Of a DNA stretch of 64,000 nt, positions 57,338 through 64,000 are shown piece after piece. A program made the position numbers and the translations under genes. Under the pieces are notes generated by a model, which was not told the origin of the DNA, did no database searches, and worked only from the letters and a program-made list of their open reading frames with translations. The stretch is from NCBI GenBank assembly GCA_041653035.1, contig JBAZGE010000002.1, positions 17,451 to 81,450 on the forward strand, in the 5' to 3' direction. This stretch comes from Candidatus Omnitrophota bacterium. GTDB lineage: Bacteria > Omnitrophota > Gorgyraeia > Gygaellales > Profunditerraquicolaceae. The number at the start of each line of letters is the position of its first letter. The stretch's first letter is position 1.

Positions 57338-58744
57338 ATGCTTAAAGAATATACCAAAGTATTCAGAAAGCTTCTTGTTTTTGCCGATGTCTGCGTTATC
57401 TCGTCGGCTTTTTATTGTGCCTGCCGCATCGGGCTCAGGCTTAACCTCCTCAGAGGCGGCGAGCCGGCATTGCAGTTTCTCGGCGGGACGCTGGTCATAT
57501 GGCTGAGTTCCCTGTACGTGTTCGGCATGTACAATTCTTTCCGCATAAAACCATTCAAGGAGATTGTCTTAGTTATTTTTCAGGCGGCGGTGATCGGGTT
57601 TGTGGTGCCGGTAAGCGTGAGTTATATATTTAAACCGCATACTTTCAGCCGGGATTTTATCGTTTTGACCGTTGCTTTCATCACTCTGTTTCTGTTCGCG
57701 GAAAAAGCCGTGCTTGTTTTTATCTTCCGTTACATCCGCAGGCAGGGCCTTAATTATCGCAGGGTGCTCATCGTGGGCACTAACAAACGGGCGCAGAGTT
57801 TCGTGGAATTAATCGAGGGCCACAGCGAATGGGGTTTCCGCGTTTTGGGGTTTATAGACGAAGACAGGTCAAGAACCGGCCGGGATGTCGGTAAATATAA
57901 AGTGCTGGGGGGGTTTGACGATGTCCCCGATGTCATCCACGAAAAAGTAGTTGACCATGTTGTTTTTGTGGTGCCGAGGGTATGGTTCGACAAGATCGTC
58001 GGCCTGATCACTTTTTGCGAGACTGAAGGCATACCGGTGAGTTTGGCGGTGGATATGTACGACCTGAAAATCTCCCGTGCTAAGCAGACCGATCTGTACG
58101 GGTTTCCTTTGTTGACTTTCGAGAGCACTCCGGATAAATTATGGCATTTACTGGTCAAACGGGTCATGGACATAGTTTTATCCGGGGTGTTCCTGCTGGT
58201 ACTGGCGCCGTTTTTCGCGGTGATAGCCGTCCTGATAAAGCGCGGCTCGCCCGGTCCGGCCTTTTTTAACCAGGAGCGCTGCGGTTTGAACGGCAGGAAA
58301 TTCATCATGTACAAGTTTCGTACCATGGTTCAGGGCGCGGAAACCAGGCTGGAAGAACTGCGGGCCGGAAATGAAATGACCGGCCCTGCGTTTAAGATGA
58401 GCAATGACCCCCGGGTGACCGGAATCGGCAGGTTCCTGCGTAAATTCAGCGTGGATGAATTCCCGCAGTTATGGAATGTTTTTAAGGGCGATATGAGCCT
58501 GGTCGGCCCGCGCCCTCCCCTGCCGTCGGAAGTGGTTAAATACGACAACTGGCAGAGGCGGCGCCTGAGTATGAAGCCCGGCTTGACCTGTTTGTGGCAG
58601 ATACGCGGCAGGAACGCCATAACCGATTTTGACGGATGGATGAGGCTTGACCTTGAATATATAGATCGCTGGTCGCTCCTGCTTGATTTCCGGATTATCT
58701 TAAAAACCATCCCGGTAGTACTTCTGGGCCGGGGAGCTAAATAA
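57338..58744 (+). CDS. Undecaprenyl-phosphate sugar phosphotransferase (WbaP/WcaJ-like bacterial sugar transferase)
   Basis: Multi-TM N-terminus and C-terminal catalytic domain RPLLPSE...LSMKPGLTCLWQIRGRN. Confidence 0.85.
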   Translation: MLKEYTKVFRKLLVFADVCVISSAFYCACRIGLRLNLLRGGEPALQFLGGTLVIWLSSLYVFGMYNSFRIKPFKEIVLVIFQAAVIGFVVPVSVSYIFKPHTFSRDFIVLTVAFITLFLFAEKAVLVFIFRYIRRQGLNYRRVLIVGTNKRAQSFVELIEGHSEWGFRVLGFIDEDRSRTGRDVGKYKVLGGFDDVPDVIHEKVVDHVVFVVPRVWFDKIVGLITFCETEGIPVSLAVDMYDLKISRAKQTDLYGFPLLTFESTPDKLWHLLVKRVMDIVLSGVFLLVLAPFFAVIAVLIKRGSPGPAFFNQERCGLNGRKFIMYKFRTMVQGAETRLEELRAGNEMTGPAFKMSNDPRVTGIGRFLRKFSVDEFPQLWNVFKGDMSLVGPRPPLPSEVVKYDNWQRRRLSMKPGLTCLWQIRGRNAITDFDGWMRLDLEYIDRWSLLLDFRIILKTIPVVLLGRGAK

Positions 58745-58948
58745 TACCTCATCGCCCTTGCGGGGCGCCTTTCGGATGAACAGACGCAACAACGTCCGGT
58801 TCGTTTACAGCTTCGTATTCTTATGGAAAAAATTATATTCTTTCTTTTTGGAAACGAAATTCGTGAGGGAAAACAGGGAGAATATAAAGATCATTCCTCA
58901 GTTTGATATCGGTAAATACATTTTAGTGTATTCCGAACGGATTCCGGA

Positions 58949-58975
58949 AATTCGCCACATTGGATGTGGCGAATT
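58949..58975. repeat. Perfect 11-bp inverted repeat AATTCGCCACA-ttgga-TGTGGCGAATT in the AT-rich junction
   Basis: Read directly. Confidence 0.85.
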
Positions 58976-59421
58976 GAAAGAAACTCCAAAACACCACATT
59001 AAATACTTCATAACAAACAAGTTACAAATTAATTATTTCTCCTTAGGCCGTCGATAATCTCTTTATATTTCAGCGCAAACTTCGTTTTTCTTACGTTTCT
59101 ATTTCAATTCACAAACTTAATATTTATATTGCAACATATATATTTCCAGTGGCTTATCGAGTTTTCCATTTCTTTCGACTACAAGTCGAAGCTGGATCCG
59201 GAGCGCAACACCGATTGGCATATCGGAGGTAAGCAGAAGTTTGTCACGGAGTTGGTGATCATCTACTTCAACGCTCGTTAATAATATAAGTATTAAAAAA
59301 GAAACCTTCGCTGGTCAGCATGGCTGGCGGAGGTTTTTTGCTTTACTGGGAGAAATTTTTTATTGTTATCTCAAATCGTTGTGGTAAAATATGGGTTAAA
59401 ATGTAACAGGGGGAATTTTCC

Positions 59422-59625
59422 ATGAAAGAGCTCGTTAAAGCATTTAACGCAGAAGAGATAGCGGAATATCTTCGCCTGCATCCATATACAATACGCCGTC
59501 TAGCCAGAGAAGGGAAAATACCGGCTTTTCGCGCCGGCGGCCGGTGGCGTTTTCGTAAGGATGATATTGACCAGTGGTCGAAGTCGTATCCGTTTGCGCA
59601 TGGCAATAAGAAAACGAAGGGGTAA
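59422..59625 (+). CDS. Excisionase/MerR-type HTH (HTH_17-like) small DNA-binding protein
   Basis: EEIAEYLRLHPYTIRRLAREGKIPAFRAGGRWRFRKDDIDQW is the typical excisionase-family HTH. Stop lies 8 nt before the helicase start. Confidence 0.7.
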   Translation: MKELVKAFNAEEIAEYLRLHPYTIRRLAREGKIPAFRAGGRWRFRKDDIDQWSKSYPFAHGNKKTKG

Positions 59626-59633
59626 CGGCATAA

Positions 59634-62600
59634 ATGATACAAAGCTTTAATAACAAAACCGAAAAAGCCGGCGATGATTTTAAAAAGAACCTCGGTAAAG
59701 ACAGCCGTTTACAAGTCGCGGCTGGTATTTTTACGATATATGGGTTTGAATGTCTCAGCGCCGAATTGAAAAAGATCGATAAATTGAATTTTATTTTCAC
59801 AGATCCCACTTTCATCGAAGTTGACAAAAATCGGCGCGAAAAGAAACAATTTCAAATCAAGGCCGACTTCCGGCAAAAAGCTATCAGCGGATCAGAGTTT
59901 GAAATACATTTAAAGAATGAACTCAAGGGGAAGGCGATCGCAAGGGAATGCAAAAAATGGATTGAGGAGAAAGCATCTTTTAAGGCAAATATTGCCAATA
60001 AATATATCCAGCCGCATATAACCCTTGAGAACGGTGAGAATAAATATGTGTACATGGGGATTAATGAATTTAGCAGTGCCGGGTTCGGCTACGAAAAAGA
60101 CAATTCCGTTCTGCATCAGATAATTAAGACAGACGATTATGAAGCAACTAAGCAGTACATCCAAAACTTTGAAGAAGTATGGAATGATGAAAAGATAGTA
60201 AAGAACGTAACCGACGAGGTTCTCGGATATATCGCGGACCTTTATAAGGAAAACTCCCCGGAATTTATCTATTACTTGACGCTCTATAATATTTTTGATG
60301 AGTTTTTGGAGGACATTTCCGAGGATGAACTCGCAAATGAGAAAACCGGCTTTAAGAATTCTGTAATTTGGAACAAGCTCTACGATTTTCAAAAAGACGC
60401 CGCTTTAGGAATTGTTAACAAATTAGAACGGCATAATGGGTGTATTCTTGCAGATAGTGTTGGCCTCGGGAAAACTTTTTCAGCCATAGCTGTCATTAAA
60501 TATTATCAGGAGAGAAACCGCACTGTACTCGTGCTTTGTCCGAAAAGGCTGGGAGATAATTGGCGGACTTTCTTGAACAATTATGATGACAATCCCTTGT
60601 TTAGGGATCGCTTGAATTATCATGTCCTGTATCACACGGATTTATCCAGAGATCAGGGGCAATCAAACGGTATTGATCTGTCCAGAGTCAATTGGGGTAA
60701 TTATGATCTGGTCGTGATCGATGAATCGCATAATTTTAGAAATAATGACCCTCGAAAAGATAGAGTGACACGATACCAGAGACTGCTGAACGATGTCATG
60801 AAGGCCGGGGTTAAGACAAAAGTTCTTATGCTTTCAGCGACGCCGGTCAACAACAGGTTTACGGACTTAAAAAATCAGATCGCTCTGGCCTGTGAAGGCG
60901 AAACAAATATTGCTGACGGGAGGATGGATACAGATAAATCGATTGATACCATACTGACAAATGCGCAGAGGGTTTTCAATGATTGGTCAAAATTGCCGGT
61001 TGAAGAACGCACCAGTCAAGAGTTGTTGAAGCGGCTTAATGCGAATTTTGATTTCTTCAAGTTGCTTGACAGCGTCACAATAGCCCGAAGCCGGAAACAT
61101 ATAGAAAAGTATTACGATATCAATAAGATCGGGAAATTTCCCAACAGGTTAAAACCGATTACCCACCACGCCGATATTACAGACCTTGAAGGGTTTATTG
61201 AAATATCGGAGCTTTACAAAGAACTCTCAAGGTTGTCAATGGCCATCTACTCTCCGACTGAATATATTTTGGACAGCAAGCGGCAATTTTATAGCGATCT
61301 TTATGATACAAAGCTGGAACAGGCAAGCTTTAAGCAGGCCCATCGCGAGAAGAACCTCCAAACCCTTATGAGGGTAAATTTCCTTAAACGGCTTGAAAGT
61401 TCAGTGGATTCATTCAGGATCACTCTTGGCAAATTTATCAGTGAGATCGAGCGGATTATCAATAAGATTGGGGAGTTCGAAAAAAACGGGGCTCAAGGAT
61501 CGGTTGAGGCTATTCAGTTCGGCGATATCAATCTCGATGCTGATAGTGACGACTGGTTAAACGATGAATTTAGCGTCGGAGGTAAGGTTAGGGTTAACTT
61601 GGAGGATATGAATACAACAGGGTGGAAGCAGGATTTGGAGGCCGATGTTTTTGTTGCCAACGCAATATTCAGAGAGATGGAAAAGGTAACCCCCGAACAT
61701 GATACGAAACTCCGAGATCTGAAAGCATTCATCAAAAACAAGCTGAGATCCCCTGTCAATCCCGGAAATAGAAAAATTCTGATATTCAGTGCTTTTGCGG
61801 ATACGGTGAATTATCTATACGAAAATCTTGCCGGGTACAATAAAACGCTTGGCCTTGAGACCGCAAAATTGACAGGATCAGATGAGAACAAGACCACACT
61901 AAAGTTAAACAACAACTTCAATAATATTCTGATCAATTTCTCCCCGCGATCCAAGGAGCGCAGAGATAAGTCAGCCCCGGAAATAGACATCTTAATAGCG
62001 ACGGACTGTATTTCCGAAGGGCAGAACCTGCAGGATTGCGACATGCTGATTAATTATGATATTCATTGGAATCCAGTGCGCATTATTCAGCGGTTTGGCC
62101 GTATAGACAGGATCGGGTCAACGAATAAAGATATTCAGCTGGTCAACTTCTGGCCGCAGTTATCCCTTGATGATTATATAAATCTGAAAAACCGGGTTGA
62201 AAACAAGATGTTTATCGTCGATGCGACAGCAACCGGTGAAGATAACGTTCTGACCAATAAATCTTCGGATCTGTTATTTAGGAAGAAACAGCTGGAAAGA
62301 TTGCAGGAAGAGGTTGTTGATATCGAAGATATGGGCTCAGGCGTTTCAATTACCGATCTAGGGCTGAATGATTTCCGCATGGATTTAGTGAACTACATCA
62401 AAGAGAATGGAAGTCTTGCGAACGTTGCTAATGGGATGCATGCGGTTTGCAAAAAAGACATAGAGCGTGGTATAGAAGAAGGAGTTATTTTTGTTTTAAA
62501 AAATATAAACAACGAAGTAAATATTGATAAAACCAATCAGCTTCATCCGTTTTATTTAGTGTACATAACTGCCAATGGGGAGATTTCTTCAAATCATTTG

Positions 62601-62876
62601 GACGTGAAAACCACGCTGGATATCCTTCGCGCGCTTTGTAAAGGCAACAGCGAACCCCTAAAAGACGTATACGAAGTGTTTAACGATGAGACTGACGACG
62701 GCAAGAATATGGCCAAGTATTCCGGATTGCTGAACAAGGCTATCGAATCCGTGCTTCATGTGAAGGATGAAAGCGACGTGGACAGTCTTTTTACGGCGGG
62801 AGGCACCACCGCGCTCATGAACAATATAAAGGGCCTTGAGGATTTTGAACTTTTGACTTTTGTGGTGATCAAATAA
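59634..62876 (+). CDS. SNF2-family (SF2, DExH) helicase, 1080 aa, with uncharacterised about 240-aa N-terminal and about 250-aa C-terminal domains
   Basis: Motif I LADSVGLGKT, II VIDESHNFRN, III LSATPVNN, VI QRFGRIDRIGS. Confidence 0.85.
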   Translation: MIQSFNNKTEKAGDDFKKNLGKDSRLQVAAGIFTIYGFECLSAELKKIDKLNFIFTDPTFIEVDKNRREKKQFQIKADFRQKAISGSEFEIHLKNELKGKAIARECKKWIEEKASFKANIANKYIQPHITLENGENKYVYMGINEFSSAGFGYEKDNSVLHQIIKTDDYEATKQYIQNFEEVWNDEKIVKNVTDEVLGYIADLYKENSPEFIYYLTLYNIFDEFLEDISEDELANEKTGFKNSVIWNKLYDFQKDAALGIVNKLERHNGCILADSVGLGKTFSAIAVIKYYQERNRTVLVLCPKRLGDNWRTFLNNYDDNPLFRDRLNYHVLYHTDLSRDQGQSNGIDLSRVNWGNYDLVVIDESHNFRNNDPRKDRVTRYQRLLNDVMKAGVKTKVLMLSATPVNNRFTDLKNQIALACEGETNIADGRMDTDKSIDTILTNAQRVFNDWSKLPVEERTSQELLKRLNANFDFFKLLDSVTIARSRKHIEKYYDINKIGKFPNRLKPITHHADITDLEGFIEISELYKELSRLSMAIYSPTEYILDSKRQFYSDLYDTKLEQASFKQAHREKNLQTLMRVNFLKRLESSVDSFRITLGKFISEIERIINKIGEFEKNGAQGSVEAIQFGDINLDADSDDWLNDEFSVGGKVRVNLEDMNTTGWKQDLEADVFVANAIFREMEKVTPEHDTKLRDLKAFIKNKLRSPVNPGNRKILIFSAFADTVNYLYENLAGYNKTLGLETAKLTGSDENKTTLKLNNNFNNILINFSPRSKERRDKSAPEIDILIATDCISEGQNLQDCDMLINYDIHWNPVRIIQRFGRIDRIGSTNKDIQLVNFWPQLSLDDYINLKNRVENKMFIVDATATGEDNVLTNKSSDLLFRKKQLERLQEEVVDIEDMGSGVSITDLGLNDFRMDLVNYIKENGSLANVANGMHAVCKKDIERGIEEGVIFVLKNINNEVNIDKTNQLHPFYLVYITANGEISSNHLDVKTTLDILRALCKGNSEPLKDVYEVFNDETDDGKNMAKYSGLLNKAIESVLHVKDESDVDSLFTAGGTTALMNNIKGLEDFELLTFVVIK

Positions 62877-62903: not shown

Positions 62904-63272
62904 ATGGGTAAAATTATGAGAGAAAACGTTATAAAGAATAAGAGTTTTAATTTTGCACTGAGGATTGTGAATCTATTTAAGTTTTTGCAGGATAAGAAGG
63001 AATTTGTGCTGTCAAAGCAGATCTTGAGAAGTGGGACAGCCGTTGGGGCTATGGTTCGGGAAGCGGAACACGCTGAAAGCAAAGCCGATTTTATTCATAA
63101 AATGTCAATCGCCCAAAAGGAAGCAAATGAAACTTTGTATTGGTTGGAGCTTTTATATCAATCAGATTATTTAGAAAAAAACATGTTTGACTCGGTGGAA
63201 TCGGATTTAATCGAAATACAAAAATTGCTTTCATCAATTCTTATCAGTTCTAAAGCTAAGGTGAATGAATGA
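62904..63272 (+). CDS. Four-helix-bundle protein (23S rRNA intervening-sequence-protein family)
   Basis: FNFALRIVNLFKFL....EFVLSKQILRSGTAVGAMVREAEHAESKADFIHKMSIAQKEANETLYWLELL matches the family pattern; such genes are commonly embedded in restriction-modification operons. Confidence 0.7.
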   Translation: MGKIMRENVIKNKSFNFALRIVNLFKFLQDKKEFVLSKQILRSGTAVGAMVREAEHAESKADFIHKMSIAQKEANETLYWLELLYQSDYLEKNMFDSVESDLIEIQKLLSSILISSKAKVNE

Positions 63273-63922
63273 AGGATTCACAATTTACAATTCATAATTT
63301 ACCATTACCAAAAGAGGCTTTTGTAAATAAGTTTATCGCCAAGACTAAGTTTTACGAAAAGGCGGCTTTAGGGGCAAAGTTACAGAAAGAATTTATAGAT
63401 AAAATTCAAAAGATCACATGGAAATATAAACTGGCGGAAAGCACCATAGGCATCACAAAGACAGCCAAGGTGACCGAGATACAGATATTTGAAATTGAGC
63501 TTAAAGAGCAAGTGATACCCAAAAATGTCTTACGGATCATTGATAAAACGATTCCTTATCAGATATTGTACCGGTTTATTTATAAAGAAAATGTCGCCTA
63601 TGCGGTCACATTAAAAGAGAGCGGTATAGAGAATTATTATTTTTCCGGCTGGAATGAGGGCAAGAGCTTTGATTTTACCGGCATTGATCTGGAGAAGGTG
63701 TACCAGAAGATCATCAAGGCGTTTATAACAAGTGAGGCAAAAGCAAAAACCAGTTTCAATGAAATTATAGACACCGACAATAAGATAAAAGCGATAGAAA
63801 ACGAGATAACCGCTTTAGAGAGCAAAATATCAAAAGAAAAGCAGTTTAACCGCAAGGTTGAGCTGAACAAAATATTGCTGGAGAGAAAAGCCCAGCTTAA
63901 GAAGATTAAAGAGGAGTTATAA
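63269..63922 (+). CDS. DUF4391-like protein
   Basis: Identification from memory of the family and its recurrent helicase/methyltransferase neighbourhood, not from a search. About 217 aa, C-terminal coiled coil. Start overlaps the previous stop by 4 nt. Confidence 0.45.
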   Translation: MKDSQFTIHNLPLPKEAFVNKFIAKTKFYEKAALGAKLQKEFIDKIQKITWKYKLAESTIGITKTAKVTEIQIFEIELKEQVIPKNVLRIIDKTIPYQILYRFIYKENVAYAVTLKESGIENYYFSGWNEGKSFDFTGIDLEKVYQKIIKAFITSEAKAKTSFNEIIDTDNKIKAIENEITALESKISKEKQFNRKVELNKILLERKAQLKKIKEEL

Positions 63923-63925
63923 GAA

Positions 63926-64000
63926 TGGATAAAATGAAGATGCGTACCCCGGATATGACAGATAAGAATATCGAGCGCCTCGCCGAACTTTTCCCGAATA
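63926..64000 (+). CDS. Start of a DNA methyltransferase-like gene (N-terminus MDKMKMRTPDMTDKNIERLAELFPN), truncated by window end
   Basis: The N-terminal NIE+L+ELFP motif is characteristic of large Eco57I-like N6-adenine methyltransferases as I recall them; only 25 codons are visible. Confidence 0.35.

Follow-up and report, generated by a model that had tools for sequence, protein, structure and literature searches.

The window analysed here, a stretch of 64,000 nt, carries at positions 59634..62876 of the plus strand a gene for a SNF2-family ATPase of 1080 aa (ORF list, translation, Pfam and PADLOC), which is the first large gene of an operon. The question raised by this locus is what the two ends of the protein are for. 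A sequence-only reading had placed the helicase motifs between two large termini without a motif that could be named, and had proposed these termini as the likely sites of an effector or a regulatory module.

Helicase core and terminal regions of the SNF2 protein

The gene is a single uninterrupted frame with the N-terminus quoted in that reading (ORF list and translation); the database copy identical to it is P0001, and a 97%-identical homologue, P0002, is encoded at locus L166. Pfam matches SNF2-rel_dom/ResIII at residues 248-412 and Helicase_C at 711-828, both with scores above the cut-offs for the SNF2 family (PF00176, 48.9 bits against 24.9; PF00271, 54.9 against 23.5). The first RecA-like lobe (residues 248-412, 60375..60869; plus strand, as are all features given below) holds motifs I-III, with GLGKT at 277, DESH at 363 and SATP at 401, and the second (residues 711-835, 61764..62138) holds motifs IV-VI, with QRFGRIDR at 819. 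All of these ATPase motifs are intact and lie between two large termini as had been described, and the protein is a putative active dsDNA-dependent ATPase. In the gap between the Pfam lobes lies an insertion that is conserved family-wide (residues 413-710, 60870..61763), at the place where SNF2 enzymes have helical lobes. A helical linker leads into the helicase from the N-terminal side (residues 191-247, 60204..60374; helices 193-205 and 209-229 in the model), and it is strongly conserved (mean conservation 0.90), with P209, Y213, L217 and F221 in invariant or near-invariant columns.

The termini did prove to be without a nameable motif, since Pfam is empty on residues 1-247 and 830-1080 even at E<=10. 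For the isolated N-terminal end, Pfam, PADLOC, NCBIfam and phmmer/profile searches against PDB sequences gave no named match, and for the isolated C-terminal end the same searches (Pfam at E<=10) gave only the PADLOC HKD+Snf2 profile, PDLC01075, which covers residues 164-1078 of the whole protein (E 1.7e-129). The family is very large (18,473 proteins at E<=0.001 in a representative search), and most of the best 150 homologues align from about residue 5-20 through to residue 1080. Conservation of both terminal regions across so large a family indicates that they are real domains and not chance extensions.

The C-terminal end consists of two parts. A conserved helical segment past motif VI (residues 836-905, 62139..62348) is partly common to DrmD-type SNF2 proteins, as PADLOC DrmD alignments extend to residue 896; modelled alone it has low confidence (pLDDT 39-56), with helices at 845-866 and 879-899. 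It is followed by an alpha+beta domain specific to the HKD+Snf2 family (residues 906-1080, 62349..62873), for which the model has four to five strands and three helices, the extreme C-terminus forming the last strand. No neighbour, and none that is nuclease-like, was found for this model among solved structures; its confidence is moderate (pLDDT 71), so a fold match could have escaped detection. The family alignment has no conserved acidic/His/Lys constellation and no conserved catalytic residues in this domain, and no PD-(D/E)xK or degenerate REase fold of the HmaA/RapA kind lies C-terminal to the helicase. The C-terminal domain is common to the clade of the window protein and to the HKD-bearing clade described below. 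As the helices and the alpha+beta domain are unchanged from the HKD-SNF2 ancestor, their function is most likely intrinsic to the motor and not specific for a partner.

A degenerate PLD domain at the N-terminus

The N-terminal domain (residues 1-~190, 59634..60203) has the fold of the PLD/HKD nuclease superfamily and has lost its active site. Eight catalytic columns (H, K, G, S, N, N, E, N) are invariant in 39/39 HKD-bearing representatives of the family, while they vary among 49 HKD-less representatives. The window protein retains none of the eight residues: its H-x-K...G-S-x-N motif has a gap in the H column, and P127, I143 and E145 in place of K, S and N. The HKD motif is likewise absent from all 120 of the closest homologues and from 85 loci checked. 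Pfam PLDc_2 and RE_NgoFVII are matched by 16 of 53 family N-domains, every one of them HKD-bearing, and PLDc_2 gives no match on the window domain even at E<=10. Moreover, PDLC01075 is matched by the window protein at profile positions 149-946 only, residues 1-195 alone matching nothing, and by the HKD-bearing relative P0136 at positions 20-946. A profile search against PDB sequences also gave a weak match to Zucchini at the HKD region (E 0.4). On our best reading, the domain descends from an HKD nuclease, the cutting head of the sister HKD-SNF2 restriction proteins. In a neighbour-joining tree built on the helicase plus the C-terminal region, HKD-bearing and HKD-less proteins fall into large pure blocks, which is compatible with one or several losses of the motif.

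The decay of the active site does not seem to have released the domain from constraint: its mean column conservation is 0.80, that of the helicase insert being 0.78, and alignment of the family suggests that it is still under purifying selection. This, together with its true nuclease fold, speaks for the proposal that one or both termini act as effectors, through a non-canonical nuclease at the N-terminus (H92/K94 or H128) or a nuclease in the C-terminal domain. The H-x-K pair noted earlier as present outside a canonical HKD motif does exist (H92-L-K94), away from where PLD proteins have their HKD motif; as H92 is found in just 3 of 118 close homologues, 104 of which have N, we do not accept the pair as a motif. 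H128, considered as a replacement for the catalytic His, is found in 107 of the 118, but it occupies a hydrophobic core column that is M/L in the HKD-bearing clade and F/M/L/I/V in other HKD-less proteins, and we reject it as well. With eight of eight invariant active-site columns lost, a C-terminal domain lacking both a nuclease-like neighbour and a candidate catalytic constellation, and a complete nuclease already held by the Res subunit (see below), an effector at either end is very improbable. The earlier proposal is supported in part: the N-terminal end has a nuclease fold, and its catalytic residues are gone.

By analogy with non-catalytic PLD-fold proteins, the pseudo-PLD domain or the C-terminal alpha+beta domain might be a regulatory module that controls the motor or Res on sensing a ligand, a phage protein, or an end or a modification of DNA, and a degenerate PLD fold could have acquired a new ligand-binding or catalytic activity invisible to sequence analysis. 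However, no conserved polar pocket was seen in the family alignment, where the conserved columns of the N-terminal domain are mainly hydrophobic, and fold comparison found SRA, YTH, PUA and Tudor folds at neither end, so that we consider a sensor rather unlikely. The FAM83 DUF1669 domains, pseudo-PLD scaffolds of eukaryotic signalling, have no sequence relationship to the window domain (9% identity).

We instead regard it as probable that the SNF2 protein works as the accessory motor of a four-gene Type III-like restriction-modification (R-M) operon without itself cutting DNA, and that the pseudo-PLD domain is kept as a structural module. Such a module may serve in dimerisation, DNA contact or docking of a partner. 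In single-HKD PLD nucleases the HKD loops are situated at the dimer interface, hence their decay could also have ended dimerisation.

Gene order and partners of the HKD-less clade

It is the genomic context that decides how the SNF2 protein is read. Downstream of it in the window are a gene for a four-helix-bundle protein of the 23S rRNA-intervening-sequence family (122 aa, 62904..63272; Pfam and NCBIfam), a gene for a DUF4391 protein (217 aa, 63269..63922; Pfam PF14335, E 2.4e-43) and, truncated where the window stops, the first 25 codons of a gene for a Type III Mod methyltransferase (63925..64000). The last of these was recognised by comparison with L166: the window Mod start, MDKMKMRTPDMTDKNIERLAELFPN, is 80% identical to the N-terminus of the L166 Mod, MDKMKMRTPDLTEENIKRLAALFPN, which PADLOC MTase_III matches over its full length (E 4.4e-220). 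The rest of Mod, and Res, are presumed to be present at the window locus from this relative, which is 93.6% identical in nucleotides. Res proteins of relatives are matched over their full length by PADLOC REase_III (E 9e-286), and the downstream Type III genes match NCBIfam PRK15483 (E 1.2e-115). Across 60 sequences, conservation of the Res motifs ETGTGKT, DEPQ, QExGRGxR and PD934...E952-x-K954 is 95% or higher, and the ATPase motifs and PD..ExK nuclease of the relatives' Res are complete.

This arrangement is strict in the HKD-less clade, of which 121 loci were sampled and 79, with at least 8.5 kb downstream, were used for synteny counts. Mod is present in 79/79 of these, Res in 76/79 and a DUF4391 gene detectable by tblastn in 69/79. 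The HKD-bearing clade (42 loci sampled) has none of these partners in its 15 loci with long flanks, and instead 40 of 47 loci examined have an Eco57I/TaqI_C methyltransferase of ~1190 aa about 26 nt past the SNF2 gene. DUF4391 is the partner that marks the HKD-less SNF2 clade. It was also considered as a hidden PD-(D/E)xK nuclease on account of its invariant E70, D92 and K116, an idea that is unsupported, as a profile search of PDB sequences was empty and hhalign against the Res nuclease gave a probability of 0.6%.

The order SNF2, DUF4391, Mod, Res is constant over many bacterial phyla and one archaeal MAG, and in L001, L002 and L166 each gene either abuts the next or shares 1-4 nt with it. 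The operon is very common (>8000 clusters scored at 90% identity), and its carriers include many bacterial phyla, 135 plasmids, natural E. coli plasmids among them, and a few phages. Our literature search found no paper on a SNF2-accessorised Type III system and no functional treatment of DUF4391/PF14335. The SNF2 gene is best read as the first gene of a widespread, undescribed four-gene version of Type III R-M.

It could be argued that SNF2 and DUF4391 form a two-gene module of their own and simply accompany a Type III system, as a second line of defence, an anti-anti-restriction device that clears away phage inhibitors or proteins bound to DNA, or a safeguard removing Res-Mod from host DNA. 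Mod and Res alone make a complete Type III pair by homology, and some loci accommodate unrelated genes (four-helix-bundle, Bro-N, DUF1016) within the operon, which argues against an absolute requirement for translational coupling. However, no HKD-less SNF2 gene lacks a downstream Mod among the 79 long loci, the gene order is fixed across the phyla, and the loss of nuclease residues from the SNF2 protein is easiest to understand if another subunit of the same machine cuts. We find such a separate module improbable.

Under the accessory-motor reading, SNF2, DUF4391, Mod and Res would act as one machine, in which the PD..ExK nuclease of Res would cut DNA in trans and Mod would give self-protection; the active site of the HKD-less clade would have decayed, and the PLD fold been retained as a structural module, once Res supplied cleavage, while the C-terminal helices and alpha+beta domain would keep a motor-intrinsic role. 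We also put forward, as a tentative extension that falls a little short of an even chance, that the pseudo-PLD SNF2 protein and DUF4391 are obligate subunits making Mod-Res a two-motor, four-component restriction machine, a distinct R-M subclass that would have arisen when an HKD-SNF2 protein ceded cleavage to Res, with the dead nuclease domain as coupling module.

Relation to known defence systems

The closest known proteins are the HKD(PLD)-SNF2 proteins of the sister clade (PDLC01075), which have the same architecture and N-domain fold and are homologous in helicase, inter-lobe insert and C-terminal domain (31-53% identity). They differ in their invariant H.K...GSxN...N.E.N motif and Pfam PLDc_2 match, the motif being lost in the window clade, and in their partner, one large gamma-class methyltransferase as opposed to DUF4391 with Type III Mod and Res. 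SauUSI (PDB 7clg) similarly joins a PLD nuclease to an SF2 helicase in an ATP-dependent restriction enzyme. It is a single-polypeptide Type IV enzyme whose HKD site is active, whose helicase is not of the SNF2 type and whose C-terminal domain reads modifications, whereas the window protein has a dead site, a SNF2 motor and a C-terminal domain matching nothing known. Canonical Type III systems (EcoP1I/EcoP15I, Mod2Res) resemble the downstream half of the operon, whose Mod and Res match Type III models and whose Res keeps the ATPase and PD..ExK motifs; however, they consist of two genes and function without a SNF2 partner, while the window-type system has in addition, upstream of these genes, a DUF4391 protein and a SNF2 ATPase whose PLD domain is dead.

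DISARM class 1 (DrmD SNF2, DrmMI, DrmA helicase, DrmB DUF1998 and DrmC PLD) runs parallel to this operon in its components: each combines a SNF2 ATPase and a second SF2 helicase with an N6-adenine methyltransferase, a PLD-fold domain and a small DUF protein. Among named models, those for DrmD match the helicase part of the window protein best, but the NCBIfam DrmD model NF038317 scores 155.6 bits against a cut-off of 610, and the adjacent genes encode DUF4391 and the Type III subunits Mod and Res. In contrast to DISARM, there are no adjacent DrmA, DrmB or DrmC homologues, the PLD domain is fused and inactive, and the second helicase, Type III Res, has its own nuclease. In Hma and BREX-related systems, HmaA is a SNF2 protein with a C-terminal PD-(D/E)xK nuclease (PMC11232893, PMC12839542) and Type-2 BR helicases carry an HKD domain at the N-terminus (PMC12839542). 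These systems share with that of the window a SNF2 motor with a fused nuclease-type domain and a link to N6-methyltransferases, but their fused nuclease is active and accompanied by DUF499 or Hma ATPases, and the window protein matches HmaA in the helicase core only.

SNF2 motors recur in bacterial defence (DISARM, BREX type 3, Hma, Zorya and Dpd), and to our knowledge their contribution has rarely been understood. The window-type operon joins such a motor to Type III enzymes, among the best-understood restriction enzymes, and the two clades form a natural experiment, in which nuclease-keeping sisters have one type of partner and nuclease-lost proteins another. Its occurrence on natural E. coli plasmids makes genetics and biochemistry feasible at once; one such operon spans NZ_CP029688.1 17214-26242 on pLKJULY7989 and encodes WP_104730525 to WP_104730528. 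DUF4391 gains a first functional context, and "helicase-related protein" annotations in this clade would denote a predicted PLD-derived, non-nucleolytic restriction accessory.

Two small genes accompany the window operon. The four-helix-bundle gene sits between SNF2 and DUF4391; it is missing in L166, where homology breaks exactly there, and it occurs in about a dozen other loci at varying positions in the operon. Upstream, a gene for a 67-aa excisionase/MerR-like DNA-binding HTH_17 protein (59422..59625; Pfam HTH_17, E 3.5e-17) ends 8 nt 5' of the SNF2 start; its product is a candidate regulator of the operon. L166 has this gene too, ahead of its 97%-identical SNF2 homologue, as do a few other loci.

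Terminal domains of the SNF2 protein

The ORF at 59634-62876 (+) encodes 1080 aa, including the N-terminus quoted in the sequence-only reading (ORF list and translation). Pfam recognises one lobe as SNF2 and ResIII (residues 248-412) and a second, at 711-828, as Helicase_C, and the ATPase motifs are intact (GLGKT 277, DESH 363, SATP 401 and QRFGRIDR 819). The ends, in which that reading could name no motif, also drew a blank in Pfam: neither residues 1-247 nor 830-1080 gave a match, even as isolated queries at E ≤ 10. The parts list of DISARM class 1 runs parallel to that of the operon, but the tests of membership were negative; the SNF2 protein reached no NCBIfam equivalog cut-off, the top model being DrmD (155.6 bits, where 610 are required).

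This is a very large family: more than 8000 clusters (90% identity) were scored, and an exhaustive search found 18,473 representatives at E ≤ 0.001. The 120 best clusters originate from very different phyla and are 71-100% identical to the window protein. In most of the best 150 representatives the alignment starts near residue 5-20 and runs to 1080, and both ends are therefore conserved domains. The homologues P0002-P0120 include Omnitrophota, Dependentiae, Synechococcus, Ignavibacteriales, Spirochaetes and Desulfobacterales proteins with 71-97% identity over all 1080 residues; for a defence gene, this is an unusually high degree of identity across phyla, pointing to fast horizontal transfer.

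When the window protein was aligned with 88 full-length representatives (31-53% identity), about half of these possessed the canonical PLD nuclease signature FLHGKMYHI...VGSSNFTxxGLG...N[IL]E in the columns of window residues 120-162; neither the window protein nor its nearer relatives have it. All 39 HKD-bearing representatives share identical residues in the H, K, G, S, N, N, E and N columns, which vary among the 49 others; the window protein has a gap, P127, G142, I143, E145, S158, L160 and Q162 at these positions. An active non-canonical nuclease is an unlikely rival explanation. When 53 N-domains were searched in isolation, 16 matched PLDc_2 and RE_NgoFVII of Pfam, every one of them from an HKD-bearing member; the window N-domain had no Pfam match. 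The N-domain table contains SauUSI (13.1), NucT (11.6), FAM83B (11.3), NgoAVII (11.2), Nuc (10.8), Zucchini (10.8) and BfiI (10.7). Single-HKD PLD nucleases dimerise, and the pseudo-PLD may still do so.

Two other histidines were considered and rejected. The pair H92-x-K94 lies off the HKD position, with H92 present in just 3 of 118 close homologues, in agreement with the earlier view that it is not a canonical HKD motif. H128 is frequent among close homologues, but its column belongs to the hydrophobic core.

Mean column conservation is similar in the N-domain and the helicase insert (0.80 versus 0.78), and because the N-domain is still conserved it does serve some purpose. A sensor domain is another, less likely rival explanation. 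The predicted structure of residues 836-1080 (pLDDT 71) has two parts: low-confidence helices at 836-905, a conserved stretch covered in part by DrmD profiles (up to residue 896), and a confidently modelled alpha+beta domain from about residue 906 to 1080, whose final strand is the extreme C-terminus. This region matches the C-terminal part of the PADLOC 'HKD+Snf2' profile (E = 4.8e-26). It is common to the HKD-bearing and HKD-less clades, which speaks for a function of the motor itself and against one tied to a single partner set. The ends had been proposed as the likeliest places for an effector or regulatory module; both are genuine domains, one of them derived from a nuclease, but neither seems to be the effector.

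Partner genes and loss of the nuclease site

We compared 167 loci, drawn from scans of genomes and metagenomes, from contig look-ups and from a single plasmid record. The HKD-less clade comprises 121 loci, and the 79 with at least 8.5 kb downstream contain the methyltransferase Mod in 79, the restriction subunit Res in 76 and DUF4391 in 69 cases, whereas none of the three occurs in the 15 HKD-bearing loci (of 42) with as much downstream sequence. Instead, an Eco57I/TaqI_C methyltransferase of about 1190 aa lies ~26 nt downstream in 40 of the 47 HKD-bearing loci examined. In this sample, HKD-site loss and the change of partners go together without exception.

Mod and Res of these operons match the PADLOC Type III models at full length, and the Res motifs ETGTGKT, DEPQ, QExGRGxR and PD934...E952-x-K954 are kept at ≥95% in 60 sequences. 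Our best reading is an accessory motor of the Type III Mod-Res enzyme, derived from an HKD-SNF2 restriction protein. An ancestral protein of this kind would have been recruited as the motor; with Res supplying the nuclease, its own nuclease site would have decayed and the PLD fold would have been retained as a structural module. The motor might add directed translocation or the removal of DNA-bound proteins. DUF4391, found only with the HKD-less clade, is the obvious candidate adaptor. A less likely rival explanation is an independent two-gene module. No match was obtained for the DUF4391 profile among PDB sequences, and hhalign gave a probability of 0.6% against the Res nuclease domain. Its invariant residues among 30 diverse members are K25, I49, W51, K54, E70, D92, K116 and Q192, and its C-terminal tail, KEKQFNRKVE, is coiled-coil-like.

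HKD-helicase fusions are well-known restriction components (PMC10853773, PMC12839542), and there is experimental work on SNF2-nuclease fusions such as HmaA (PMC11232893). Our literature survey found no paper on a Type III system with SNF2 and DUF4391 additions, nor one treating DUF4391 functionally. RefSeq names the four proteins 'SNF2-related' or 'helicase-related protein', 'DUF4391 domain-containing protein', 'site-specific DNA-methyltransferase' (Mod) and 'DEAD/DEAH box helicase family protein' (Res). The terminal domains are of interest less for themselves than for what they reveal: a four-gene form of Type III restriction-modification that is very common but uncharacterised, and a clean evolutionary link between nuclease-site loss and change of partners.

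The sister clade (L086-L131 and L138; e.g. L122, 4311-7883) has an intact HKD in a compact two-gene unit with the Eco57I/MmeI-like methyltransferase (~1190 aa), which bears a TaqI_C specificity domain, and an SMC/AAA_23-type ATPase lies ~4 kb downstream in seven of its loci. One HKD-bearing-clade member (L114, 1576-4899) has Asn in place of the catalytic His (LLNGKMYHV...GSSNFT) and may represent an independent, recent inactivation; its short contig does not reach the partner region.

Origin and spread of the cassette

GC content falls from ~0.50 to ~0.40 at 58.5-59 kb (region 58500-59300), and from position 59173 onward the window is 93.6% identical in nucleotides to the metagenomic contig L166, where HTH_17, SNF2, DUF4391, Mod and Res directly follow phage-tail genes. 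Acquisition of the cassette was probably recent, and phages may carry it. In L166 (9549-13970), the genes immediately upstream of the operon encode phage-tail (GpJ-like, Phage-tail_3) and radical-SAM proteins.

In the window, the HTH_17 (excisionase/MerR-like) gene (59422-59625, +; 67 aa) stops 8 nt short of the SNF2 start. A copy likewise lies upstream of the 97%-identical SNF2 homologue in L166 and in a few further loci, and enterobacterial plasmid copies have a WYL-domain gene at or beside the match in its place; its product is a possible operon regulator. Between SNF2 and DUF4391 (63269-63922, +) lies a four-helix-bundle gene of the 23S rRNA-intervening-sequence protein family (62904-63272, +). 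This gene is not present in L166, and in about a dozen further loci its homologues occupy varying positions of this operon; Bro-N and DUF1016/YhcG genes are likewise inserted in L004. Small selfish genes appear to use the intergenic junctions of the operon as landing sites. The first 25 codons of Mod occupy the last 76 nt of the window (63925-64000, +), and the remainder of Mod, plus Res, probably lies just beyond its end.

In a 3.8-Mb genome with homologue P0044 (L001, 18970-22217), an AbiEi/AbiEii pair precedes the operon and a McrBC pair follows it; this setting is a defence island. The operon was found on 135 plasmids and a few phages. The E. coli plasmid pLKJULY7989 (IncFIB/IncHI1B; NZ_CP029688.1, 17214-26242) carries the whole operon (SNF2, DUF4391, Mod, Res) adjoining an ISKpn26 element, with SNF2 ~51% identical. 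Of 5426 complete E. coli genomes, 10 have a near-identical copy, which is on a plasmid in nine of them.
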